A stretch of DNA of 64,000 bases from a virus. The notes under the pieces were generated by a model, which made no database searches, was not told the origin of the DNA, and was given only the letters and a program-made list of their open reading frames with translations. The stretch lies in the IMG/VR virus record IMGVR_UViG_3300008952_000019, positions 27,449 to 91,448 of that record; one strand, 5' to 3'. Positions 1,001-59,716 of this stretch are shown piece after piece (within the stretch, counting starts at the first letter, position 1; the number at the start of each line of letters is the position of its first letter). The position numbers and the translations under genes are program-made.

Positions 1001-4000
1001 CTATGGTGTGTTCGGGTCCCCAGTGCCTGCTACCCTGTCGTTATCTAATGTAGACATTATACCGGCTATTAATTGTTGTGTTACAAAATTATCTTCAAAA
1101 TAACCTCTAGATATTAAAGTATTTTCAGTTGTAACTGTACCAGCATATTGCGGTTCGCCTTCTGTTGTGTCAAATGTAACCTTACCACTGGCTGCCTTTA
1201 AATTTAAGTTGTTAGTTGATTCAGTTGTTGTACTTATGGTATTGCCGGAAATGTCAACGGTACCTATTGTTGCTGTATTTACCTCTAGAGCGTTCTCACC
1301 ACCACCTAACTGATTAGTTATATATGTTTTTATTGCTTTTTCAGTAACCAATGCATTATCCGAATTACCACTTAATGTTCCATCTGTGGAAAATTCATCA
1401 ATGGTTGCACCATACCCTGCAAATTGTAATGCTCCTAATTTTAATTGTTGTAATCCATTTAATGAAAATTGTTCAGCATTTAATGTTGCAGTACCTGTTG
1501 CCTGTTGTACTGAAAATAATCCGCCAACACTAAAGTTACCATCTTGGTCAGTTGATGTAAAGAATACTCTACCTCCGCAATGACCTTGAGTTTCGTTGGT
1601 CGGATTTGATGGCTGAGTTGGTGTACCAGGATAATTTGATGTTACAAATGTTCCTGTACCTACATCTAAAAAGTCATGACCTGTTAATCTACAACTAGAA
1701 TATTCTTCTCTAAATTGTATTGATGAATTATGAACAGGTGCTTTTGATGCCACCATTGATGGCGATATTTGTACTCTACCAGTACCGTTTGAGCCCCCTG
1801 AATTAACGTATCCGATAGTATTAACAACTTGATAGTATGTTGGGTCGCCTGCTATTTCTAAATTAGAACCATCCTTTGGTTCGCGTTGTAATCCTGTTAC
1901 TTCTAGATATGATCCAGTTTGAGGTACTTCGGCAAAGCCATCTCCACTTACGATTGCAACGGTAGTACCCGGAGTTGTTGCACCACTTGTCATACCTGTC
2001 GGATAACCGCCGCCACCTGAAGTTCGTGTCCATACTGGTACACCATTTTTAATTCTTATTGTACTATTAACTGCTTGAGATCCTAAAGTAATTAAAGGAT
2101 CAGTAATAGTTACAGTAGTAGGTGGATTACTAGCATCATAACCCGATCCTGGATTTACTATTAAAAGTTGTTCTATATCACTTAACGATGAAACCTGACA
2201 CCGTATGAATGCTGCATCAGTTGGTGCAGATCCGCCTGATAATGTGACTGCTGGTTCAATTTCATAAACAGAAGTTGTATCAGGAACTGCCGTTGCACTT
2301 CCGGTCATAGAAATCCATTGGCCATCTAATGTTGCGACTTTAGAAGCATTATCATAATCTTTAACAATAGCATATTGTCCGCCACCTGTTCCGCTTAAAA
2401 GGTTACATACCATACCATTAATTGCATCATCTGCTATTGTATTAGCAGTTGCAGTTAATGTAAGGGTAGCATCGCCCGAAGTTGGATTAGTACCACCTTG
2501 AGCATTACCTGTGTATCTATTAAGATTAGATACATTGTTTATCATATCAATTCTATTTATACCCCCATTAACATGTGCTGCCGTAAATGTAGCCGCTCCG
2601 CCTGCAGCAGTGGTTCCTGCATCATTATCACCTGCAGCAGTAAATGATACAGTAGCATTAGAATAATTTTCTCCTGCGTAACTCCATTCTATTCGTTGGA
2701 CTTGGCCAGTAGATTCATTTACAACAACCCTATAAGGTACAGACTCGCCTGTTCTATTATCTATTTGTCCTGTTTTTTGTGTTAAAATTGCTTCTGAGGC
2801 ATAATGTCCTTCAGATATTGAACCATAATTACCATACGAATTATTACCATTTGCAGAACGTATAATACCACCATGGGTAGTTGCATAACCTACATGGCAA
2901 TAATATGTAAACACCGAGACTGCCTCGATTCTTCCTTTATTTGTTGCAAATAAACCAAAGCCGTTTGAATTAATCTGTGTAAAATCATTTGTACAAAAAC
3001 TTGCATATCTTCCATTAGGTGCATGTGTACCATCACAATAAATACCACCTCCTCCGTCATTAATTGAACAGCAATTCTGAATAAATGGAGATTTAAGATT
3101 AACCTCACCATTAGGATCTAACTGAAAACATACTCCTTTGATTGTAGGTTCTGTATGAGGATTACCTACACCTATAACAGTACCGCCTAGACCTCTGAAT
3201 GTGAACCCTCTAACAGTTATAGCATCGTTGCAATAAAACATAGCACATTCATTATTTGCTATACCGCTCCCTAACATTGATATACCTACGCCGTTGCCAC
3301 CATCATCTTCCATGTTAGGCTCAATAAATGTTGTACGCATTTCAGTGCCGAAAATACCGACTCCTGCTGGAATTGTAATAGGTAAAAATTCTTTAAATAC
3401 ACCTGGTGCACACTTAATTTGATCACCTGTTCTAGCTCTTGCACATGCATATCTTATTGTTTTAAATGCTGCACTTGGATTTTTACCCCATGTAATAACA
3501 CCTGTTACTTGATTATCAGAATCAACTTTTACACCATTTAATACTTCTCGCCAACCTTCATTAATAGCACCTGATTCTGCATTCGCAGGTTCTACACCTA
3601 CACGTTCTTTTATAGCCATATAAACTTTATATTTTACAGCAGAACTATTATAATTAGCAGAAGTTGTACTATCATCTTTTCCGTACAATCTATCTTTTCC
3701 ATAATATATATGAACTGTATTGGATGGGTTCTGAGCTGTTGTTTGTGCTATTGGAGCCGAAGGTGATATTTTAACCCATGGTGCTCCTGCTACTGCATTT
3801 GTCATTGGTGCTACTGTATCTGCATTAGTTGTATCTTTACATTTATACCAATCCATTGTTGCAGGAGTCGGCGCTGTATCTACATGTGATACTATTTCAC
3901 CTATAGTATAAGTTCCGCCTGACTGCCATGCAGGAGGAGCCCATCGAGTAACCTGACCTGGAAGATAAGTTGCAGTAGAACTATAATCCTGAACAGCTAC

Positions 4001-6913
4001 GCCAGAACTAGAACTACCGGACGCTTGTGACGCGACTGCATTGGATATAATAGTTGCCTGACTAGATGTTATATCGTTAAATGCTGTAGTTGCATTAGCT
4101 GAAGCATTTGTTATTGCAGGATACGTTATTGCGGTACCTACAGAAGTATTATTTTTAACTGCATCTTCTATAACTTGTAAATTTGTATCTACTATTGTAG
4201 TTTCTGCACTTGTTCCTGCGGTTCCTGAAGTATCTTGGGTTACTGCAGATTGTTCTGGATTCCAAGAAGTATTTTCTTCAATACAATACTTAAATACATC
4301 TGCCATATAATTATATGCTAATCCGGTAACTACTCTATGATTTGCAGGTATCTGAGATGCTCCGCCATCAAAAAATGAGTTAGCAGATATTATAGTACCA
4401 AAATCACCACCATACATTAAATCATAACACATAGCATCAACAAAATATTTTGTGTCTCGTGTACATTTTGTTGCATCATGAACATAACTAGCACTACCTG
4501 CAACAGATGCTACCGCCGCCGATATAATTGTAGTTTGATCCGTTGTAACTTCTGTATGTGCAGTTATATAAGTTGAAGTAGCAACATCTACCGCTGTAGG
4601 GGCCGGAATTCCTGCGGCACTATTAGCAGTAATTGCATCTTCTATAATTTGTACTAAACTTGAACATATTGTGCCTTCTGCGGCTGTTGCGGGTGTACCA
4701 AGTATATCTTGTGTTTCGGTATTTCCTGTTTGAGGAGTTACTGTTGTTTCTTGAACAATATCACTTGCAATTGATGCTAAATGATCGTATGCTAATACAG
4801 TTACATTTCTTTCTGTTGGAGTTGTTAATTGAGAAACACCTCCATCAAAAAATGATTTAGCCATTATTGTCATTGCAGTATCGCCACCGTACATTAAATC
4901 ATAAGTTAAAGCATCAACAATATAACCCGAATCTCTTGTACATTTTGCTTCATCGTATGTTGAAAAGTGAGAGGCATAATTTTGTGTTACCCACGCATTT
5001 ACATCTGCGGCTATAAAATCTTTGTTTGCTTGTAATTGGTCACCACCATTTTTTCTATCTGTCCAATCTGATCTACCTGTATTAAAATCTGGAAAAGTCA
5101 AAGCATTAGCACTACTAAGACCATTATCCATAATATCTTTAATTTCTGCATAGGCGGCAACTACTGCGGTTTCTGCCGCACCAGTTACATTAGCTAATGC
5201 TTTAACAGCAGTTTCGGAATGGTCAATTGCATCTTGAACTCGTACTATATCTGAAGAAGTTGCATACAGGCTATAATTCATTCTAATACCAGTAATAACT
5301 GCCATATAATTTGAGCCAATTGCCATATCATTTTTTGCGGCATCAACAACATAACCTAAATCTCTTGTACATAAATCTTGTTCTGCTTGTGTCATTGCAC
5401 TAATATAATCTTCTACCCAAGCATTTACTTCTGCGGCTATAAAGTTTTTATTTGCCTGCATTTGTGCTACTGCATTTTGTTTATTTTGGGTAGCACCAAA
5501 GGCTGGCAATGTTACAGGATTTGCTGCGGCATGACCGTTGTTTATAATATCTGTTACTTCATTAAACCCGTTTGTTACGTCTGTTAGTATTGAATTTACT
5601 GTTTTAACACTATTAATATCTACAGTTGCTAACTTTGCATGATTAATGGCTCCTAACACTCTTATTCTATCAGCGGTTGTTACAGATACACCATATTGCA
5701 TTCTATGACCAACTATGGTTTGCATATAATTTGTGCCTATTGCCATATCATATTTTGAAGCATTTAACACATATCCTAAGTCTCTTGTACATAATGTTTG
5801 TTCATTACTTGTCATAGCTCCTGTTGACGTTACACCTGGGCTATAAGTAAGATTTTCTTCGTCTTCACCTTTATGAGCGTCTACATACCAAGTGTATGAT
5901 TCGTCATCTGGATCCCAATGTACAGGATGACCTTGACCTTCGTCTGCTCTTAGTTTCCACCCTTTTTGACCAACATTTAATGCTACATTAGTACTTGTAC
6001 GTATCATTATATCACCAGGAGAATTCATTACAATTTGTGTATCTCCAGCTGATAATGTTTCCCAAAATGTTGTGTTTGGCGGTTTTGTTGTAGCAGATCC
6101 GTCACCTAAATGTTCGTCTTTACAAACATATGAACTATTTGTTTCTTTAACAACATCACCTAAATAATACGTTACACTATCGGCCCAATCACCTATAAAT
6201 TTAAAACCTGAATTTAACTGGTCCCAATAGGTTGAATTAACTATTGTTTGATTATAAGTTGGAGAACTGCTATCTCCATCTTGTACTGTAGGAGAATTAC
6301 CTGTAGTATCTGCGTTTGCAACATATGTATATCCGTTTCGTCTAATTACACTACCTGGTTTATATGCAGTACCTGAGTTATAATCTCCCATTACTGTAAA
6401 TCCAGTAGTTACAATCTCCCAATTAGCAGTATCGGTAGGTAGATTTTCTTTTGTATCTTGTTTTGCAGTATATGTGTAACCACCATAAGTTACAACATCA
6501 CCTGTTTGGTATTGTTTACTATTAATATAGGAATCTTCGAATTCTAGACCTGGTACAAACAGTACCCATTTTGCATTGTCAGTAACAAAACCTGAATTTG
6601 CATCAGCATCTGATGTATGATGTGTTTTACAAATATATAAATTAGAACCCCACCTAACTACATCATTTAATTTATATGCCGTACCTGCTTGCCATGCTGG
6701 TGTGGTTGTATTATATGAAAAACTTTCTGTATGTAACGACCAATAAGAATTACTATCTAAATCTGTATAAAATGCTGCATCAGCAGTATGGTTAACTACA
6801 CATACATAAGTGTTAGCCCCATACTTAATAATGTCATCTATAATATATGCGGTGCCTGTAACCCAGTCACCTTTCCATTTGAACTTCAGTCGTCCTAAAA
6901 TAAAATCAGCCAT
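1001..6913 (-). CDS. Giant virion/fibre protein: N-terminal CBM5/12-like repeats, four phycobiliprotein-like CxRD helical domains, pectin-lyase-like beta-helix
   Basis: 1970 aa; about 6 repeats of W/Y..GT.Y...DVV.YG...Y.C...H; four CTRD motifs (Cys375, 515, 658, 817); beta-helix cap motif AFKTIRYA...APGVFKEFLPITIPAGVGIFGTEMRTT; ATAAATA and AAGGA upstream. Confidence 0.75.
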   Translation of the reverse strand: MADFILGRLKFKWKGDWVTGTAYIIDDIIKYGANTYVCVVNHTADAAFYTDLDSNSYWSLHTESFSYNTTTPAWQAGTAYKLNDVVRWGSNLYICKTHHTSDADANSGFVTDNAKWVLFVPGLEFEDSYINSKQYQTGDVVTYGGYTYTAKQDTKENLPTDTANWEIVTTGFTVMGDYNSGTAYKPGSVIRRNGYTYVANADTTGNSPTVQDGDSSSPTYNQTIVNSTYWDQLNSGFKFIGDWADSVTYYLGDVVKETNSSYVCKDEHLGDGSATTKPPNTTFWETLSAGDTQIVMNSPGDIMIRTSTNVALNVGQKGWKLRADEGQGHPVHWDPDDESYTWYVDAHKGEDEENLTYSPGVTSTGAMTSNEQTLCTRDLGYVLNASKYDMAIGTNYMQTIVGHRMQYGVSVTTADRIRVLGAINHAKLATVDINSVKTVNSILTDVTNGFNEVTDIINNGHAAANPVTLPAFGATQNKQNAVAQMQANKNFIAAEVNAWVEDYISAMTQAEQDLCTRDLGYVVDAAKNDMAIGSNYMAVITGIRMNYSLYATSSDIVRVQDAIDHSETAVKALANVTGAAETAVVAAYAEIKDIMDNGLSSANALTFPDFNTGRSDWTDRKNGGDQLQANKDFIAADVNAWVTQNYASHFSTYDEAKCTRDSGYIVDALTYDLMYGGDTAMTIMAKSFFDGGVSQLTTPTERNVTVLAYDHLASIASDIVQETTVTPQTGNTETQDILGTPATAAEGTICSSLVQIIEDAITANSAAGIPAPTAVDVATSTYITAHTEVTTDQTTIISAAVASVAGSASYVHDATKCTRDTKYFVDAMCYDLMYGGDFGTIISANSFFDGGASQIPANHRVVTGLAYNYMADVFKYCIEENTSWNPEQSAVTQDTSGTAGTSAETTIVDTNLQVIEDAVKNNTSVGTAITYPAITNASANATTAFNDITSSQATIISNAVASQASGSSSSGVAVQDYSSTATYLPGQVTRWAPPAWQSGGTYTIGEIVSHVDTAPTPATMDWYKCKDTTNADTVAPMTNAVAGAPWVKISPSAPIAQTTAQNPSNTVHIYYGKDRLYGKDDSTTSANYNSSAVKYKVYMAIKERVGVEPANAESGAINEGWREVLNGVKVDSDNQVTGVITWGKNPSAAFKTIRYACARARTGDQIKCAPGVFKEFLPITIPAGVGIFGTEMRTTFIEPNMEDDGGNGVGISMLGSGIANNECAMFYCNDAITVRGFTFRGLGGTVIGVGNPHTEPTIKGVCFQLDPNGEVNLKSPFIQNCCSINDGGGGIYCDGTHAPNGRYASFCTNDFTQINSNGFGLFATNKGRIEAVSVFTYYCHVGYATTHGGIIRSANGNNSYGNYGSISEGHYASEAILTQKTGQIDNRTGESVPYRVVVNESTGQVQRIEWSYAGENYSNATVSFTAAGDNDAGTTAAGGAATFTAAHVNGGINRIDMINNVSNLNRYTGNAQGGTNPTSGDATLTLTATANTIADDAINGMVCNLLSGTGGGQYAIVKDYDNASKVATLDGQWISMTGSATAVPDTTSVYEIEPAVTLSGGSAPTDAAFIRCQVSSLSDIEQLLIVNPGSGYDASNPPTTVTITDPLITLGSQAVNSTIRIKNGVPVWTRTSGGGGYPTGMTSGATTPGTTVAIVSGDGFAEVPQTGSYLEVTGLQREPKDGSNLEIAGDPTYYQVVNTIGYVNSGGSNGTGRVQISPSMVASKAPVHNSSIQFREEYSSCRLTGHDFLDVGTGTFVTSNYPGTPTQPSNPTNETQGHCGGRVFFTSTDQDGNFSVGGLFSVQQATGTATLNAEQFSLNGLQQLKLGALQFAGYGATIDEFSTDGTLSGNSDNALVTEKAIKTYITNQLGGGENALEVNTATIGTVDISGNTISTTTESTNNLNLKAASGKVTFDTTEGEPQYAGTVTTENTLISRGYFEDNFVTQQLIAGIMSTLDNDRVAGTGDPNTP

Positions 6914-7398: not shown

Positions 7399-7820
7399 TA
7401 AAATACTCTCCATGTCGAACCATTATACGATAAACCAAATGATGCATTATTATAATCTACAATCATATCATCTGCTAAATCCATAATAGTATTTCCATTT
7501 CTTAAAACTGTAACATTTAAACTTGCAAAATTGCCGCCGCCATCAGATATGTGAACTGCATCACCGGTGTTAGGCGAAGCAGGTAATGTTACATTAATAG
7601 GATTAGATCTAGTATCAACTTGAACATTATCACCTGCAGCGATAGTAAAATCCGAATTTTTATATGTTACAGTCGGTTGAGCACCGTGCAATGTTTTAAA
7701 AACTAAATTACCTGAACCGTCGGTCGCAACGGCATCTCCGGCTGTGGCCGAATTTGTTGTGCTAAGTGTCGATGCTGTTACTGAATTATCTGAAATTAAC
7801 CCTGTAGTTTTTAAAGCCAT
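7398..7820 (-). CDS. Small fibre connector with T4 gp9/gp10-like domain
   Basis: VDTRSNPINVTLPASPNTGDAVHISDGGGNF...VLRNGNTI...SYNGSTW pattern typical of gp9/gp10-like connector domains. Confidence 0.6.
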   Translation of the reverse strand: MALKTTGLISDNSVTASTLSTTNSATAGDAVATDGSGNLVFKTLHGAQPTVTYKNSDFTIAAGDNVQVDTRSNPINVTLPASPNTGDAVHISDGGGNFASLNVTVLRNGNTIMDLADDMIVDYNNASFGLSYNGSTWRVF

Positions 7821-7843
7821 TATTCATCCTGTACTCCGTATAA

Positions 7844-7850
7844 TATTTAT
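7844..7850 (-). promoter_or_regulatory. T4-like late promoter (ATAAATA)
   Basis: ATAAATA overlapping the stop of the 289-aa gene, 23 nt upstream of the ATG at 7820. Confidence 0.5.
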
Positions 7851-8716
7851 CGTACAAGCAAGAATGAGACGGTTATAATAACTGAACAAAGGAACACAAC
7901 AAAGGTATAATACGTAATTAGGGGAGTTTTAAAATACATTTTACCTATTATAAAACATTTATGGGTGGGACTTAGCATATAACCTGCATAATCTATAGCA
8001 AAAAACATAGGAAGATATTGAACGCCAAAGATACTTGTAAGAATAGCAGTAAATGCAGCAAAGCGAGATGAAGATCCTAATAAAAAACTACCGGCAAATC
8101 CTAACCAAGCACCTGTAATAAGAGACCATTCGTTGTTTTCGATATATCCTTTAATTTCATTTGTATAAGATTTGATGTAATTTCCTAAAATAATAACTAA
8201 AGCAACCGCAATTAATAATTTCCAATTAACCCAATTTACTTTATTAAATTTTTGTATAGGATTAGCCCATACAACATCTTCATCTTTTAAAAAATAAAAT
8301 ACTAATATTAACGGAAGAACTATACCAATAGTAGCAAGTGGCCCCATTATATACATAAACTCTGTATATGTCAATCCTAAAACTGCCATCGGTATAATAA
8401 CAGATTTCTCTAAAGGCGACCACAAATAGTAATGATGTGTACTGAGATAATCTATAATACCATACCATTTACGTTTATCATCCTTGGGTGCCATAGTATC
8501 CAAAATACCTGCAGATACTGATACTCGACCAGGTATAGGTAATACACCACATACAGAACTAATTATAATAATAAATAACCTATTGGATTTTATATATTTG
8601 TTTAAAAAATTTAATGTTGGATACACCCAACCTTTACGTTGAATATATGCTGAGATAATCATGATAGCTGCCAAATATATAATATACCATTGATTATTAA
8701 ATATTATTTCTAACAT
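7847..8716 (-). CDS. Multi-pass membrane protein, DUF401-like (ion transporter superfamily)
   Basis: 289 aa, many hydrophobic helices; GVLPIPGRVSVSA, THHYYLWSPLE and GYMLSPTHKC recall the DUF401 motifs GLLPMPGG, RH..E..WP and G..LSP.HLC. Confidence 0.65.
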   Translation of the reverse strand: MLEIIFNNQWYIIYLAAIMIISAYIQRKGWVYPTLNFLNKYIKSNRLFIIIISSVCGVLPIPGRVSVSAGILDTMAPKDDKRKWYGIIDYLSTHHYYLWSPLEKSVIIPMAVLGLTYTEFMYIMGPLATIGIVLPLILVFYFLKDEDVVWANPIQKFNKVNWVNWKLLIAVALVIILGNYIKSYTNEIKGYIENNEWSLITGAWLGFAGSFLLGSSSRFAAFTAILTSIFGVQYLPMFFAIDYAGYMLSPTHKCFIIGKMYFKTPLITYYTFVVFLCSVIITVSFLLVR

Positions 8717-9425
8717 GATTTTCGTATAGTCTTTTAATTATATGTCTAGGATATTGGAAAGAAAAGTAATTTAAATATTTTCTTTTCTTTAGCCAGAGCT
8801 TATCGTTCTTAGTTTGATCTCGTACTATAACATCATAACTTTTCTCTGTCAATGGAATTAAATGTGCAATAGGGGTTCCTGCTTTTATAAAAGTAGTTCC
8901 ATTAGGGTAATTCCAGTATCCTTGAATATTTACTTCTGTACTATAACCAGGATCTAAAATACCTATGCAACATTCAAAATCTATAAATTCTGTGTATGAT
9001 ATAGGTACCATTAAAAACTTAACACCTTTAGGTGCCATGACATGCCATGGGGTATTAACTTTAACAATATCAGGCCAACTCCATGGTCGCTTAGGTAAAT
9101 GTTTTCCTATTTTATCACCTAGCTGTAAACTAACTGTATCTTTACCTAAAAACTCATTTATAGACCTATCAGGTACTGACCACTTTTCCCTTGATATTTC
9201 AAGATCATGCCACATAGGAACAATATAACCAGTCGTAAACAGATGGAAAATTCCAGGACATCTAGTTATATGCTGAAAACTAGTTTTTTCATTTTTTTGT
9301 GATATTAAGAAGTCTTTTCTTGCTTCATTAACCCATGAGGGGGTAAATTCTTTTGCAGGTTGTATAGGAAATGATTCTGCTAATCCTTCTACAGATGAAA
9401 AAAATTCAATAGCATTTTTACCCAT
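8697..9425 (-). CDS. dUTPase-fold/DUF6065-like phage protein of unknown function
   Basis: PIQPAKEFTPSW...TRCPGI..LFTTGYIVPMW...PWHVMAPKG...GILD...IKAGTPIAHLIP; lacks the Gly-rich dUTPase motif V. Confidence 0.55.
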   Translation of the reverse strand: MGKNAIEFFSSVEGLAESFPIQPAKEFTPSWVNEARKDFLISQKNEKTSFQHITRCPGIFHLFTTGYIVPMWHDLEISREKWSVPDRSINEFLGKDTVSLQLGDKIGKHLPKRPWSWPDIVKVNTPWHVMAPKGVKFLMVPISYTEFIDFECCIGILDPGYSTEVNIQGYWNYPNGTTFIKAGTPIAHLIPLTEKSYDVIVRDQTKNDKLWLKKRKYLNYFSFQYPRHIIKRLYENHVRNNI

Positions 9426-26876: not shown

Positions 26877-27650
26877 TCACTGTTGTTCTACTGCTATTTC
26901 TTCTGCAGACATTAATGATATCCATGTACCACTCCAATTAGCAGAACTACTGCTAGAATGATTAACATATGTTGTATTTCCTGCTTCTGCCCAACCATGC
27001 AAGGCATATGTTCTTGTAGTTAGATTATTAGCATCTGTATAAAGAGAAAATCTCATCTGACCCATATCATTACTATCATATGCAGCTTGGGCTCTATATG
27101 CAAAATGAACTGGTCGTCTACCTGAACTTCCTGATCCTAACGGAGCAACATATGTAGTATTTGTTATATCATAAAATGCAAAATGAAATAACACATTTGT
27201 ATTAGTCCAATTTGCATTCAATTCTATTGTTAAATGAATTTTAGATGTTGCAACTAATGGTGTTATTGTTACTCTATGATGGTTACCTCCATCAGAATAT
27301 GTTCCTTCTGATAAATCGGCAGTTGTTTCTGTATCTACTGTAGGATATATTATTGTATAAAGATTTGTCCATTGTGCTACCTTTTTTTGCAATAACATAC
27401 CTGGAGCAATAATAGATCCTAAATCATAACCTTTGAATTTGTTTCCTGTAGGCATATTAATTATGCCTGTAGATGTATCTGCTTCTAAAGTTGCTAAAGA
27501 TGTTATTTTAGGGGTTGATACATCTGTAGATGCAGTTATAGAATCTGTATTTAAACCGAATCCTTGATGCAAATTCCATTTTGTTCCTGTTGAAGATAAA
27601 ACAGTATTACCTGTTAAATCTTCTATTTTATTAACTTTTAATGTACTCAT
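26877..27650 (-). CDS. Fibre-associated protein (MSTLKVNKI family)
   Basis: 257 aa; MSTLKVNKI start, PGMLLQ, VTITPLVATSKI, C-terminal SAEEIA. Confidence 0.6.
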   Translation of the reverse strand: MSTLKVNKIEDLTGNTVLSSTGTKWNLHQGFGLNTDSITASTDVSTPKITSLATLEADTSTGIINMPTGNKFKGYDLGSIIAPGMLLQKKVAQWTNLYTIIYPTVDTETTADLSEGTYSDGGNHHRVTITPLVATSKIHLTIELNANWTNTNVLFHFAFYDITNTTYVAPLGSGSSGRRPVHFAYRAQAAYDSNDMGQMRFSLYTDANNLTTRTYALHGWAEAGNTTYVNHSSSSSANWSGTWISLMSAEEIAVEQQ

Positions 27651-53752: not shown

Positions 53753-54928
53753 TTACTGGAACTTCATATTGTCGTCATTGACACCAATATTTGCAACATA
53801 ATCAGCAGCGTTACCTAAGGACGATGCTTGGTTTGTTAACTCAACATAACCATAGCGTGTCATAAAGGAAACGACTGGTTCAAATGTGCTTGGGTCTAAC
53901 ACAACACCGGAACTCATTAACGGAATGTATGGGCAATAAAAAGATGCGGCATCCATTTCGCCTGGGCCTTTGTAACCAACAATGACATTAGAATCATCTG
54001 CTGCATATTGGTTAACATAAACTCTCATTGAGCTATTTAAAGTTCCAACGAACTTTGTGTTTGTCGGTGCTTCAAAAGTACCTTCAGTTGTTCTTGCGAA
54101 AGCCGAAGTTGTTGCACTTTGAAGTACTGTTAATACAAACGGGCTAACTACACACCAGTTACCTGCGCCTCGACGTGTGCGAGATGCGATAATATTTGCG
54201 GCTCTATTAATAAGAACTGCAAGTGCGGCATGTTCGTCACCAACAAAAGTTGCTGTACCTGAAACTGCGGCTTGGTTATATGTATCAATAGCAGTTCCTG
54301 CCAATGTACCCAAAGAACCAAGGATTTCTTGATCAATTTCAGTTGTAATTTCTTGTGCTAAAGCAGCCATTACTTCTGCTTCAACGTCAATACCATGCTG
54401 GCTTTGGGCATCCTGAGATGCTTCAAAAGTCCAACGAGCGGACAGTCTGCGAGTCTTCGCTTCAACTGTTTGCTTCAAGATTTGGATTGACATTTTGTTA
54501 CCAGGAATACCTTCCATTGTACCTGTTGGGCTAGGAGCCGAACCTGTACCTGATGCTGGCATACCTGAATATGTTGAAGCAATCTTAAATGGACTAAGTG
54601 CTTCTTCGCCTGCTGTTGCAGCGTTTCCTGTGTCAGCATAGCGAACACGTAATGTATGAATTTGTCCTACTGGACCTGTCATAGGTTGAACACCAATGAG
54701 CTCATTAGCGATAACAGTTGGCATAACCCTTCGTATTACAGGAAGGATTACCTTATTTAAAGTTGCTACGTTACCTGCATTAGTTGCACCGGCAGTTGAT
54801 GTTTCCATCAGTGCTTGTCGTGTGTTTTCTAATGTGGTTTCCATAACCGTTCTTTTGTTGCCTTCTAGTCCTTCGCACAGAGCGTCCTTAGTTGGTTGCC
54901 AGTTGGACTCAAAAAGTGCGTCTGCCAT
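53753..54928 (-). CDS. gp23: Major capsid protein (T4 gp23-like, short form)
   Basis: PVIRRVMPTVIANELIGVQPMTGPVGQIHTLR, VEAKTRRLSARWTFEASQD, FYCPYIPL, FMTRYG; GGAG SD. Confidence 0.95.
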   Translation of the reverse strand: MADALFESNWQPTKDALCEGLEGNKRTVMETTLENTRQALMETSTAGATNAGNVATLNKVILPVIRRVMPTVIANELIGVQPMTGPVGQIHTLRVRYADTGNAATAGEEALSPFKIASTYSGMPASGTGSAPSPTGTMEGIPGNKMSIQILKQTVEAKTRRLSARWTFEASQDAQSQHGIDVEAEVMAALAQEITTEIDQEILGSLGTLAGTAIDTYNQAAVSGTATFVGDEHAALAVLINRAANIIASRTRRGAGNWCVVSPFVLTVLQSATTSAFARTTEGTFEAPTNTKFVGTLNSSMRVYVNQYAADDSNVIVGYKGPGEMDAASFYCPYIPLMSSGVVLDPSTFEPVVSFMTRYGYVELTNQASSLGNAADYVANIGVNDDNMKFQ

Positions 54929-54945
54929 AATTAATTCTCCTTAAA

Positions 54946-56082
54946 TTATATTCCTGCTAGTTTTTTAAGGTTAATAATTTCAGCACCTACATCCGTTGTT
55001 GTCGGATCCACGTGGACTGGTTTATTACCTGTTATCACAGTTTTCTGTGTTCTAGCTTTTGGCTCTACGTTCTCATTTAATGTCTTTTTAGAAGCGGTAC
55101 TTTTTGCTTGTTTTTTAACATTTTCATTAAGAACAGTTGGTAAATACTTCTCATATTGCTTTTTAAGATTGTCAGTTTGCACTGATTCTAACAAATCTTG
55201 CATAATCTCTTTCTTATCCTTAGAAAGAGGGTCAAGCAATTCTGATAAAATTTTATCTCGCTTTGCAGAAGATTCTGCTATACGAGCTTTCTTTTGTGCC
55301 TCAGAAATTTCAACTTGTTTTGACGTAATTTGTACTTGCGCCTCTTCAAGTGATCCTTCTAAATCTTTAATTTTTCCGGACAGTTTTTTAACTTCTGTCC
55401 CTTCAGCTAAATGACTTGTCATAAACTCTGCCGCAAATGCTTCAAACATTTTTCTTCCAAAAGCATTTTCTCGGGCCGATTTGATATCCTCTTTCAAGGA
55501 ACCAATTTCTCCTCTGAGCGTACTTTCAACAATGCTTTCTACTTTTTCAGCTGCTTTTCTAACAAAATTAGCTTTTGTGTTACGTAAAAGTTGCTTTCCT
55601 TCTTTAACGAGCTTAACCTTCTGTTCTACAACAGCTTGTTTATCGCTATGAAATTCGTTCAACTCTTTTGTTAACTGTTTCAAGACAAAACCTTCTAATT
55701 TTTTAAAGTTCGTGCCTTGGGTGTTTCGATCTTCTCGAAGTTCAGTTATTTCCTTCTTAAGGGCATTCATTAAGAACTTATCCAATACTTCTGCGTGTTC
55801 TTGCATTTTTTGTTTGTATTGAACTCGTGCCTCAACTAATGCACCTTTATCGTGGGCAAATTCTTCAACCTCTTGCTTAATAGCATCAGTTAACATGTTG
55901 TCCATTGCTTCTACAATCTGCTCTTTATCGTTATTGTAACGACCAGCAAATTCGTCGCGGACTTCATTAGTAATCTGCTCACGGGCTTCGGTTAATTTCT
56001 TTTCCCAAGCCTCTGTTAACGAAGTTTTAACATCTTCCGACAGGACGTCTCCACCTAATAGTTCTTCAAAAGCGTCTGCCAT
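54946..56082 (-). CDS. gp22: Prohead core scaffold protein (T4 gp22-like)
   Basis: 378-aa charged coiled coil between protease and capsid genes; FGRKMFEAFAAEF; ends LKKLAGI. Confidence 0.85.
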   Translation of the reverse strand: MADAFEELLGGDVLSEDVKTSLTEAWEKKLTEAREQITNEVRDEFAGRYNNDKEQIVEAMDNMLTDAIKQEVEEFAHDKGALVEARVQYKQKMQEHAEVLDKFLMNALKKEITELREDRNTQGTNFKKLEGFVLKQLTKELNEFHSDKQAVVEQKVKLVKEGKQLLRNTKANFVRKAAEKVESIVESTLRGEIGSLKEDIKSARENAFGRKMFEAFAAEFMTSHLAEGTEVKKLSGKIKDLEGSLEEAQVQITSKQVEISEAQKKARIAESSAKRDKILSELLDPLSKDKKEIMQDLLESVQTDNLKKQYEKYLPTVLNENVKKQAKSTASKKTLNENVEPKARTQKTVITGNKPVHVDPTTTDVGAEIINLKKLAGI

Positions 56083-56093
56083 ATTAAATTCTC

Positions 56094-56723
56094 CTAAATT
56101 TTAAGATCACTAATAAAATTAGTAATCCCTTTAGTAAGGTGCTTTTGTGCCTTTTTATCGTGCCTAACTGCTTCAGCTAATTCCAACAATGATCCACCTT
56201 TTTTGTAATTTTCCAGCTTCTCGTAAATTGGATCCGGGTAAGCGTTAGGGGCACTCGGTTGTGCAACAATATCAACTGTCACAATTTCAAAATCGGAGAC
56301 CTTTCCACCTTCACTTACATTTCCGGATCCCCTTGAACTAACACCTAGTTTAACACCACTTTCTAATAGTGTTTTAACTAAGTTACCCATAGGCGTTGGT
56401 AAAATTTTAAGTTTTCCGACTCCATCGGCTCCATGCATATCCATTTCTGTTATTACATGAGAAACACGATCTAAGTTTACTGTTAGATCTTCTGGATGGT
56501 CGGCTTCTCCTAATACCGAAAACCCTGAGTTAATTTTTTCTGATAATGATTTAACTGCTTTGTTAATTTCATTAATTGGGTAAACCCGTTGATTTTGGTT
56601 CTTAACATCACCTTGAATGAAAACACCTCTCATAAAGAGATTTTTCATTCCATTATCATCAACAGATTCTACTTGTATATTAGCTTGGTCAAAACTTAGT
56701 TTTTCTACTAATGTTACACCCAT
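56094..56723 (-). CDS. gp21: Prohead protease (T4 gp21-like)
   Basis: GVFIQGDVKNQNQRVYP, LGEADHP, RVSHVI, LGVSSRGSG, DIVAQPSAPNA. Confidence 0.95.
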   Translation of the reverse strand: MGVTLVEKLSFDQANIQVESVDDNGMKNLFMRGVFIQGDVKNQNQRVYPINEINKAVKSLSEKINSGFSVLGEADHPEDLTVNLDRVSHVITEMDMHGADGVGKLKILPTPMGNLVKTLLESGVKLGVSSRGSGNVSEGGKVSDFEIVTVDIVAQPSAPNAYPDPIYEKLENYKKGGSLLELAEAVRHDKKAQKHLTKGITNFISDLKI

Positions 56724-56733
56724 TTATTTTTCC

Positions 56734-57621
56734 TTATGCATGGCTCGATGCTACAGGTGATTTTTTATTAGCCGCGGCATCACTGTTGCTTGGATCAGAA
56801 ACATTTGAAGGTCCTGATTTCGCTGCTTTTCCACCTGGTACGTTTACATTACCGTGATTGTCTTCTTTAACTGATTGATCTCCATCACTACCGTCTGATC
56901 CATCATTAATCTTTACCGCAGTTCCGCCCATATCATTTTTACCTGCTACGGGAGACTTTTTACCTACTGCGCCTGCAGATCCAGAAGCACCAACCATACC
57001 GGTTTCGCTCATGCTTGGCTCTGGTACATTAACTGCGCCTTCGCCGATTTCTTCGTAGTCGAGTTCTTCTTCTACTGGTTCTTTATCGTTACCGCCCATC
57101 ATTAATGGATCTTCTTCTTCTGCGTCTACCATATCGGACATGTCGTCTGCTGGCATTTCATCGCCCATTTCATCATCCATAGGCTCTTCATCACCCATTA
57201 ATTTAGCAAATTCTGCTTTGAGCTCATCTAAAGCATCTTCTACATTCATGAAAGCATCATCAACAGGATCTTCACCTTCTTCGTCACCCATCATTTCGTC
57301 ATCCATAGGCATTTCGTCGGCCAAAGGATCTTCTTCTGATACTTCTTCTTGATCTATCATTTCGCTGTCGGTTTCGACTTCGTCTGCAAATTGATCTTGA
57401 ATGTCTGCTTCGTCTACTTGTTCTTTATCGTCGTCATCGGCTTTTGCCTCTTCGACGTCTTCTTCTGTTGCTTCCTCGATCTCTTCATCTTCGGTTGCAA
57501 TCTCTTCGTAAATGCCACGAGCCTTTTCCACAAATACATCATGAAGGAGGTCGCTGGCCTTTTCATTTTCCTCGTTTATGATAAATTCGAGGACTTTTTC
57601 GAGTTTTTCTCGCGTGGACAT
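56734..57621 (-). CDS. Highly acidic prohead core protein (gp67/gp68-like position)
   Basis: 295 aa, very D/E-rich, many (I/V/L)-x-E protease-type sites; lies between portal and protease. Confidence 0.7.
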   Translation of the reverse strand: MSTREKLEKVLEFIINEENEKASDLLHDVFVEKARGIYEEIATEDEEIEEATEEDVEEAKADDDDKEQVDEADIQDQFADEVETDSEMIDQEEVSEEDPLADEMPMDDEMMGDEEGEDPVDDAFMNVEDALDELKAEFAKLMGDEEPMDDEMGDEMPADDMSDMVDAEEEDPLMMGGNDKEPVEEELDYEEIGEGAVNVPEPSMSETGMVGASGSAGAVGKKSPVAGKNDMGGTAVKINDGSDGSDGDQSVKEDNHGNVNVPGGKAAKSGPSNVSDPSNSDAAANKKSPVASSHA

Positions 57622-57658
57622 ATAATTACTCCTAAAGAAAGCGTTTTGAAACTATTAA

Positions 57659-57664
57659 TATTTA
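57659..57664 (-). promoter_or_regulatory. Late promoter variant (TAAATA)
   Basis: GTAAATATTAAT in the 101-nt gap upstream of the AGGAG SD of the core gene. Confidence 0.5.
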
Positions 57665-57722
57665 CAATTTGAGAGAGAAATATGCCGAAATAAGGTCTAA
57701 AAAACACCTTTTTAGAAAAAAC

Positions 57723-57983
57723 TTACATAGTTGGAGGTGGTGCTGGTGGGATTCCGTAAATATCTTTAAAGAATTTGTATCGTTTATCAAGATCTATCTT
57801 CTTTAATTTACGCATTTTTTTCAATTTATTTAAATGTGTAAGAGTCAGTCTAGGTCGTCTACTATCATCATATTCATAGTTAGATTGATCATCTATTTCT
57901 TCATATTGTGTACCTACATTATCGGGTATTGGTGCTTCAGATAGTTGCCTAAATTCTTTCATCATCTCTACATAATTTTTCAT
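57723..57983 (-). CDS. Small basic head-region protein
   Basis: 86 aa; SRRPRLTLTHLNKLKKMR; TAATG-coupled to the portal gene. Confidence 0.7.
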   Translation of the reverse strand: MKNYVEMMKEFRQLSEAPIPDNVGTQYEEIDDQSNYEYDDSRRPRLTLTHLNKLKKMRKLKKIDLDKRYKFFKDIYGIPPAPPPTM

Positions 57984-59716
57984 TATACTGCTCCTGGGAT
58001 TGGTGCCCCGCCTTGTTCGTTGCCTGCAATAGGTGATGCAGTTCCTTCAGCTGGAGGCATTCCTCCAGGTCCGCCTATGTCTCCTTCTTCGCCTGGCATA
58101 CCTTCATCAGTTGGCATAGGTTCCATCATATCTGTATCCATAGGTTTAACACCTACTGCTCCTAAACCACCTAGGTCTTCTGCTTCTTGATCTAATTGTG
58201 TATCCTGTTCGCCATTTTCTTGTCTCCACATTTGCTCATTTTCTACTATTTCATCTTCTGAAAGTCCTAAGTATTTTTTCATTGCAAAACGCTTAGACAT
58301 AAATGGTGCTTCTGCAAGTCCACTGAATACTGCTGATCTTGCTTGATCTACTTCTACTTCTCTATACTGACTAAAACTTTGTGGTTCTACAAAATTAAGT
58401 TCAAACGTACCCGAATCAATATTAATACCTTTCCACTTTAAAAACATTTTAAATTCTTTGTCAAATGTAGGTCCTAATAATGATTGTATACGCTGACAAT
58501 ATTTTGTAAATCTAAATTCTTGAATAAATGCCGTACCTACTCGTCCATCTACATAACTAGCCGTTCCGTCATCTGGGCCTGTAGGAAGGTAAGAACTAGG
58601 AATTCGTAACGCTCTTAAAATTTTATTTGTAAAGTACCTTAAATCATCAATCTGTCCTAAGTTCTCACCTCCCGGCAAAACTTCTACTTTAGATCCTCTT
58701 CCTTCTGATGTTTGTGCAAAGAAATAATCTTCCATTATTGAAAGAGGATTGTAACTAGCATCCATGATCGTTGTACCGCCCCCAGTTTTATTAGGTATTC
58801 TACGCTGATGGATTTCATTTTTCACACGTTCTACAAAACCCATTGCTTTGTGTGATGGCATGTTTCCTACATCTATGTAAAATACTCTACGTTCAGGGGC
58901 TCTTTGTACTCTGTAAATTATAATAGAATCTTCTAGTAATTCTTTTTGCTTGTACGTTTTAAATACAGGATCAAGTATGCTTTGTCCAAAAGGCCAATTT
59001 ATATCCATGCCTTCTGTCATACCTAAATGGACTATGTGGGTTGCATCAACACCATACTCTTCTTGCTCACCTCCACCATAACCCGAATTACCTTGACCGC
59101 CTCCAGTACCGTACTGACCTCGATCAATTATGCCTCCTCGTTGCATCGAAGTTACGGATGCAAATTGATCTTGGTGTGGTATAATATTTGAAGCAGTTTT
59201 TTCTTGTAAATTTAATGCTAAATTTCTAATAACATACTGTTCTGGTTCTTTACCTTTTGATTCATTAATGATAACTTTTGTAACATCCATCGGATTAACC
59301 CACATCCATTCGTATGTTTCTGGATCACGAATAAAAAACTGGTCTCCGTATTTGCATGTATTTCTATAAATTCTCCAAATTCGTTTATCCCAGTCGTTTA
59401 AGTTATTCCATTGTTCTAATGCTTTTTCTAATAATGCTACTTCTGTTTCTGTTGAATCTTCTTTCCAATTAACCTCAAAAGGTATATTTGTTTTATCATC
59501 AAATTGAGTTGAAAATTCTGCAATAGTATCTAAGGCTGCATTAACCTCAGAATCTATATCCATTTGGTCGTATTGAACATAACGTTCAATTCTATTTGGT
59601 TGTCCTGTATATACTTCTGGCAACCAAGAACCAAACTTGTTTGCACTTGTATGTGATTGTCCTACTTTTTTTGTGTTACCAAATTGGTAAACTGTAAAAT
59701 GTTTTTTCCAACTCAT
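57983..59716 (-). CDS. gp20: Portal protein (T4 gp20-like)
   Basis: LEDSIIIYRVQRAPERRVFYIDVGNMP, EDYFF...EGRGSKVEVLPGGENLG, ALRIPSSYL. Confidence 0.95.
   Translation of the reverse strand: MSWKKHFTVYQFGNTKKVGQSHTSANKFGSWLPEVYTGQPNRIERYVQYDQMDIDSEVNAALDTIAEFSTQFDDKTNIPFEVNWKEDSTETEVALLEKALEQWNNLNDWDKRIWRIYRNTCKYGDQFFIRDPETYEWMWVNPMDVTKVIINESKGKEPEQYVIRNLALNLQEKTASNIIPHQDQFASVTSMQRGGIIDRGQYGTGGGQGNSGYGGGEQEEYGVDATHIVHLGMTEGMDINWPFGQSILDPVFKTYKQKELLEDSIIIYRVQRAPERRVFYIDVGNMPSHKAMGFVERVKNEIHQRRIPNKTGGGTTIMDASYNPLSIMEDYFFAQTSEGRGSKVEVLPGGENLGQIDDLRYFTNKILRALRIPSSYLPTGPDDGTASYVDGRVGTAFIQEFRFTKYCQRIQSLLGPTFDKEFKMFLKWKGINIDSGTFELNFVEPQSFSQYREVEVDQARSAVFSGLAEAPFMSKRFAMKKYLGLSEDEIVENEQMWRQENGEQDTQLDQEAEDLGGLGAVGVKPMDTDMMEPMPTDEGMPGEEGDIGGPGGMPPAEGTASPIAGNEQGGAPIPGAV

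Follow-up and report, generated by a model that had tools for sequence, protein, structure and literature searches.

The stretch of DNA considered here, called the window, comprises 64,000 nucleotides (positions 27,449 to 91,448) of the uncultured virus record IMGVR_UViG_3300008952_000019, a sequence of 91,448 bases with a CheckV completeness of 42%. On its minus strand lies an open reading frame (ORF) for a protein of 1970 amino acids (aa), a giant tail-fibre-type virion protein by its sequence relatives. Four consecutive units near its middle are predicted to be distant relatives of phycobiliproteins, the light-harvesting proteins of cyanobacteria, and each keeps the C-x-R-D motif of a bilin attachment site. 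The features of the gene are as follows.

1001..6913, minus strand: gene for the tail-fibre-type virion protein, 1970 aa, assigned from the ORF, PHROG 9851, tblastn and gene context.
6014..6913, minus strand: N-terminal region (about aa 1-300) with five CBM5/12 carbohydrate-binding repeats, from Pfam PF02839; boundaries approximate.
5447..5866, minus strand: unit 1, aa 350-489, phycobiliprotein-like, with Cys375 (codon 5789-5791); 85.5 bits with the hidden Markov model (HMM) of the unit; the C, R, D and second Asp are all present.
5018..5446, minus strand: unit 2, aa 490-632, phycobiliprotein-like, with Cys515 (codon 5369-5371); 98.6 bits with the unit HMM; 43% identity to unit 1.
4541..5017, minus strand: unit 3, aa 633-791, phycobiliprotein-like, with Cys658 (codon 4940-4942).
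4034..4540, minus strand: unit 4, aa 792-960, phycobiliprotein-like, with Cys817 (codon 4463-4465).
1001..4033, minus strand: C-terminal 1010 aa, fibre shaft and distal part, assigned to no family and recognized by tblastn to tail-fibre proteins.

Several comparisons suggest that this protein is part of the virus particle. The sequence matches PHROG 9851, "tail fiber protein" (E 6.4e-158), and in tblastn searches the first and last thirds of the chain resemble proteins annotated as tail fibres in the cyanomyoviruses S-CAM3 and P-SSM2 and in the Pelagibacter phage Mosig, the C-terminal matches to cyanophage and pelagiphage fibres extending to query residue ~1870. The gene sits in a structural module together with genes for baseplate, fibre, major head protein, prohead protease and portal. 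The N-terminal 300 aa contain five stretches of PF02839 (CBM5/12; 78.1 bits against a cut-off of 26.2, E 5e-22), beyond which no Pfam family is detected at E<=1 anywhere in the fibre, the C-terminal 1010 aa included. Judged from these relatives, and in keeping with the structural role assigned to it in the original prediction, the ORF product is a giant virion protein of the tail-fibre type. Its phage would be an uncultured marine jumbo myovirus.

The sequence C-T-R-D occurs at residues 375, 515, 658 and 817, and the ORF translation reproduces exactly the four Cys codons, as well as the intervals of 140, 143 and 159 aa, that had first drawn attention to the protein. A six-frame translation of the window (127,996 residues) contains CTRD four times, always inside the fibre ORF, and C-x-R-D was not found in any of the 31 other window ORFs checked. 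The units fall into two pairs by identity (43% for 1 versus 2, 41% for 3 versus 4, ~21-25% for the other pairs), and the residues invariant across all four are C, T, R, D and a second Asp. All 32 motifs are kept in the eight full-length orthologues (8/8). Each unit is helical and equals roughly one globin core, as had been proposed. The reported gapless alignment of unit 3, KCTRDSGYIVDALTYDLMYGGDTAM, to phycocyanin alpha is also borne out: 12 of 25 residues are identical to chain 6xwk, as counted on a HMMER alignment.

The repeat belongs to a large family. Searched against 1.84 billion representatives, the four-unit segment recovers 658 clusters (counted at 50% identity) at E<=1e-3, of which 264 reach E<=1e-30. 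Almost all are giant phage proteins of the fibre type, 800-6400 aa long, and a single protein may contain as many as 24 matched stretches. A local HMM delineates 2636 units in 264 proteins, and as many as 26 profile matches to the unit occur in one record. Across 2495 units of the 264 proteins, the Cys is conserved at 93.4%, the Arg at 91.5% and the Asp at 97.3%, with the full triad in 2243/2495 (89.9%); three further positions hardly vary, namely the second Asp (98.2%), a Tyr (96.2%) and an Asn (97.1%). Mean column identity among 86 aligned units is only 23%. Entries of the same predicted fold in BFVD include cyanophage proteins annotated as "tail protein", "structural protein" or "tail fiber-like", as well as proteins of uncultured phages that bear chitin-binding, collagen or lectin modules. 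In 50,697 isolate records, all 54 tblastn matches to the repeat are cyanophages, although tblastn misses carriers such as P-HM2, which is found by profile; cultured carriers include S-PM2 and P-HM2. The expectation that similar motifs would occur in other aquatic phage structural proteins is borne out, since the cluster search, the isolate tblastn and BFVD all show them to be common there.

Relationship to phycobiliproteins is suggested both by sequence and by predicted fold. Among PDB matches, phycobiliproteins account for 29/31 with a profile of the four units, 27/28 with a profile of 86 units and 27/28 with unit 3 alone, and they rank first each time. HMMER aligns the unit Cys with the KC(A/V)RD Cys of C-phycocyanin alpha chains, which we take to be Cys84, the alpha-84 site of the original prediction. 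Of all Pfam families, only PF00502, that of the phycobiliproteins, is hit by two or more of the 86 units (5/86), and six homologous giant proteins pass its gathering score of 22.2 with 26.9-41 bits (E 2.5e-10 to 5.5e-6; profile positions ~27-155). An AlphaFold2 model of unit 3 built from the 86-unit alignment is confident (predicted local distance difference test score 92.1, predicted template-modelling score 0.86). In Foldseek the ten best matches to this model are all phycobiliproteins (probability 0.94-0.99, template-modelling score 0.55-0.59), with haemoglobins lower. A Foldseek-independent structure search is likewise led by phycobiliproteins, which score 3-6 Z units above haem globins, and the structural alignment spans the whole globin core with a root-mean-square deviation of 2.1-2.6. 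The predicted unit helices correspond to A/B-E-F'-G-H in the usual phycobiliprotein naming. They are predicted to be near-continuous from unit to unit, and the sequence preceding unit 1 is non-helical by inspection. A search of the ESM Atlas with unit 3 was uninformative, the best score being 0.85 and no family being named. With phycobiliproteins first in two structure comparisons and three sequence searches, and with the Cys on the Cys84 site, the globin-like fold postulated for the units is supported: according to the models, each is a globin core lacking the X-Y hairpin, the element of phycobiliproteins responsible for alpha/beta pairing and ring assembly, and a distant phycobiliprotein relative.

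In phycobiliproteins, the Cys of CXRD forms a thioether to ring A of the bilin and the Arg and Asp bond the chromophore at other positions, as set out in passages of Rockwell et al. 2023 (PMC10151467). The reading favoured here, at a probability of roughly 0.55, is that each fibre unit carries a covalently bound bilin, which either attaches unaided or is attached by a lyase if there is one. The virus particle itself may then carry a bile pigment. By analogy with phycobiliproteins and with the BBAG globins discussed below, the four units, joined by near-continuous helices, would each retain a chromophore site in which the Cys is linked to ring A of a linear tetrapyrrole while the Arg and Asp hold its propionate and pyrrole nitrogens. 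Infected cells would make the bilin with a haem oxygenase and a ferredoxin-dependent bilin reductase encoded by the phage, or, in cyanophages, the host would supply it, and the assembled fibre would display a row of chromophores. The restriction of isolate matches to cyanophages counts for bilin binding because the hosts of these phages make bilins. We infer the attachment, its route (self or lyase) and the role of the pigment, for which light sensing that gates adsorption is the leading candidate and photoprotection the next.

A source of bilin is encoded by some carriers of the repeat. The survey covers 86 repeat-bearing viral records: 27 from a protein-pattern scan, 50 of the 63 distinct contigs among the DNA-pattern matches listed and nine new records out of 20 relatives by capsid, each 16 kb or longer. 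Bilin reductase is present in 6/86. The three complete repeat-bearing jumbo genomes (271, 364 and 519 kb) all encode a bilin reductase adjoining a haem oxygenase (3/3), and none has psbA. On the same side of the balance, the repeat and the reductase are both missing from the four cultured jumbo phages that are closest by capsid. The same two genes stand side by side, accompanied by a coproporphyrinogen oxidase, in G003, a syntenic close relative of the window's phage with a fibre 73% identical. The position of this cassette falls ~13.6 kb past the end of the window's record, and none of six sister contigs extends to it by their coordinates. CpeT occurs in 1/5 and CpeS in 0/5 of the cassette-bearing records, a scarcity that fits self-attachment of the bilin, as far as gene content can indicate.

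In G003, the haem oxygenase and bilin reductase genes are flanked by 2OG-Fe(II) oxygenases, and nearby (segment 40001-60000, at 2919-6509 and 9000-9878) are genes for an ammonium transporter, a class II tRNA-synthetase-like protein, coproporphyrinogen III oxidase and a radical SAM/SPASM protein. The complete 271-kb jumbo genome G060 has 19 unit profile matches, haem oxygenase, bilin reductase and no psbA, and encodes a CpeT-type bilin lyase at 218192-218758 (75.8 bits). In Mosig, a Pelagibacter phage that infects a heterotroph, positions 7641-12726 of the examined segment hold ferrochelatase, four 2OG-Fe(II) oxygenases, haem oxygenase and bilin reductase; these bilin genes are inside the structural module, 6 kb from a homologous tail-fibre gene, and profile search detects no phycobiliprotein-like unit.

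A number of observations weigh against a pigmented fibre. On the side of sequence, the PDB matches are marginal, with best E-values of 0.039-0.14 in a range from 0.039 to ~7; P0074 has no match in the PDB at E<=0.01, and the whole 1970-aa protein none among PDB sequences at E<=1. The comparison with PF00502 has a divided outcome, in that the six homologues pass and the window's own four-unit segment, at 17.1 bits and E 0.0058, stays under the gathering score; single window units give no PF00502 match. By Pfam's rule the window protein is not a PF00502 member, and from these scores the family is a distant relative of the phycobiliproteins. On the side of structure, no Foldseek match reaches E<=0.001, the models align only from phycobiliprotein residue ~34-50 on, the N-terminal X-Y helical hairpin being missing, and the second Asp is more conserved than the triad and has no phycobiliprotein counterpart. 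Literature searches found no pigmented virion.

Other objections are genomic. In the window's 91-kb record, searches with PF05996, PF01126 and PF06206 detect neither a haem oxygenase nor a bilin reductase nor CpeT; these negatives are uninformative because the record stops 13.6 kb short of the relative's cassette position. Bilin reductase is found in only 3/83 repeat-bearing fragments versus ~13.8 expected, a figure that is the summed CheckV completeness and assumes a reductase at a random place in every carrier, and it is lacking from repeat-bearing fragments that are 60% and 53% complete. Mosig and P-SSM2 have the reductase and no repeat, while S-PM2 has nine units and no reductase. Where cassette and fibre gene occur together they are 35-70 kb apart and never adjacent. 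Among the capsid relatives, repeat and reductase coincide in one, the repeat occurs alone in 11, neither is present in eight and the reductase occurs alone in none. Two simple proposals can be set aside on these counts: a tight gene-cluster link between fibre and bilin synthesis, given the 35-70 kb between them, and the notion that all carriers make bilin, given the deficit among fragments. A search for bilin genes in this genome and in homologue-bearing phages, suggested at the outset, gives a mixed picture: a real link in the three complete genomes and G003, a weak one among fragments, 80/83 of which show no reductase, and some counter-examples. The link between the repeat and bilin synthesis is suggestive and not general.

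The alternative that survives best, possible though doubtful in our view, is that the domain arose from a phycobiliprotein-like globin and now serves as a rigid, pigment-free building block of the fibre, its Cys, Arg and Asp being retained because folding, or contact among units or chains, requires them. The extensive repetition of the unit in fibre-type proteins with varied adhesin modules, up to 24 matched stretches per protein, speaks for such a block, and near-continuous helices between units suit a rod. The 80/83 fragments that show no bilin reductase point the same way, as do S-PM2, with its nine units and no reductase, and the near-invariance of the second Asp, Tyr and Asn, which have no known bilin role. 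Set against this, the three conserved residues make up the chromophore triad and share the helix register of Cys84, and packing alone would poorly explain a near-invariant free Cys in an extracellular protein. The 3/3 complete repeat-bearing jumbo genomes without psbA encode bilin synthesis, and a missing phage reductase is no argument against binding in cyanophages because their hosts supply bilins.

Quite unlikely is that the pocket of the conserved Cys accommodates a ligand that is not a bilin, such as haem, another cofactor or a metal, or performs other chemistry such as cross-linking between fibre chains. No His or Met is conserved in the units, the highest column frequencies being 10.8% for His and 10.3% for Met, which leaves no conserved residue for haem ligation; haem binding is ruled out as unlikely because no His is conserved. 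Phycobiliproteins also score well above haem globins in the structure comparison, and C-x-R-D is, in the passages of PMC10151467 already cited, the bilin site of phycobiliproteins and BBAGs. That a helical repeat came to resemble phycobiliproteins by chance or convergence, without being related to them by descent, is very improbable in view of the PF00502 scores of the six homologues, the first place of phycobiliproteins in both Foldseek and the Foldseek-independent search, the alignment of the whole globin core and the occurrence of the motif at the same helix position.

If the units do bind bilins, the adsorption behaviour of cyanophages offers a lead to their function. P-HM2 and P-HM1 fail to adsorb in the dark and P-SSM2 and P-SSP7 adsorb, as reported in passages of Liu et al. 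2019 (PMC6628666), where Jia et al. 2010 is cited for the light requirement of S-PM2. The unit profile detects four units in P-HM2, four in P-HM1 and nine in S-PM2, versus none in P-SSM2 and none in P-SSP7. The repeat is therefore present in 3/3 light-requiring versus 0/2 dark-adsorbing phages, a set of five that includes two of the same species and one podovirus, and the match is a lead and not a test. In both P-HM2 and S-PM2 the units lie in two giant ORFs: at 54754-57630 and 83087-83956 of NC_015284 (P-HM2), in ORFs of 4458 and 3682 aa, and at 55600-58146 and 166408-170415 of NC_006820 (S-PM2), in ORFs of 3340 and 3792 aa. The further step, that the fibre arrays are bilin photoreceptors through which the virion itself senses light and gates adsorption, we consider unlikely on present evidence. 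If true, it would explain the light-dependent adsorption of some cyanophages, which does not rely on host photosynthesis, as well as the presence of haem oxygenase and bilin reductase genes, without a known acceptor, in phages of apparently non-photosynthetic hosts. Passages of a 2024 paper (PMC11480375) treat as open the question why phages of non-phototrophs carry bilin genes and raise the possibility of BBAG-like globins.

The bilin-binding globins known so far are antenna proteins or small proteins of cells, and none is known from a virus particle. Should the fibres carry bilins, they would be the first pigmented, and possibly light-sensing, phage appendage, and an acceptor could be named for the products of phage haem oxygenases and bilin reductases. 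Our literature searches, which were thin on subscription journals, found no paper on phycobiliprotein-like domains in phage structural proteins. New here are the G003 cassette, the negative result among fragments and the adsorption lead.

The major capsid protein of the phage (window 53753-54928) is 74% identical to that of Sinorhizobium phage Phosso, 69% to that of a Vibrio phage, 67% to that of PA5oct and 66% to that of GAP32, with more than 602 relatives among viral contigs. A capsid resembling those of jumbo phages of heterotrophs combined with fibre ends resembling those of cyanophages and pelagiphages suggests a mosaic ancestry of the structural genes. Window positions 7820-53130 form a ~45-kb block of eight large ORFs (668-2505 aa), several with tail-fibre PHROG matches, that is missing from the otherwise syntenic G003, in which the capsid side is followed directly by the genes beside the fibre; the block looks like a variable fibre arsenal. 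A short ORF at 63627-63959 matches the PHROG for 5'-3' deoxyribonucleotidase.

The closest known relatives of the units are the phycobiliproteins of PF00502: C-phycocyanin alpha by sequence, and phycoerythrin beta and allophycocyanin by predicted fold. Phycobiliproteins are subunits of ~165 aa, whereas the phage domains stand in tandem arrays, from four to over 20 of them within a giant fibre protein of the virion. Because the phage units have no X-Y hairpin, alpha/beta-type pairing is not expected of them, and they possess in addition an invariant second Asp and a long, confidently predicted loop. BBAG-1 and BBAG-3 are non-photosynthetic phycobiliprotein relatives, some with CXRD, that are linked genomically to haem oxygenase and bilin reductase and bind bilins without a lyase, according to the same passages of Rockwell et al. 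2023 (PMC10151467). The genes of the BBAGs, which are small proteins of cells, lie next to bilin genes, in contrast to the phage units, which are repeated within a virion protein and have the cassette tens of kilobases away; the two are likened here by description only. Photoglobins, or photocobilin proteins (8j2w, 8j2y), score under phycobiliproteins in comparisons with the units, are fused to B12-binding or signalling domains and are non-viral. In ApcE, the core-membrane linker of the phycobilisome (4xxi), one bilin-binding domain is combined with linker repeats within the phycobilisome, whereas the phage fibre contains several such phycobiliprotein-like domains in a single chain.

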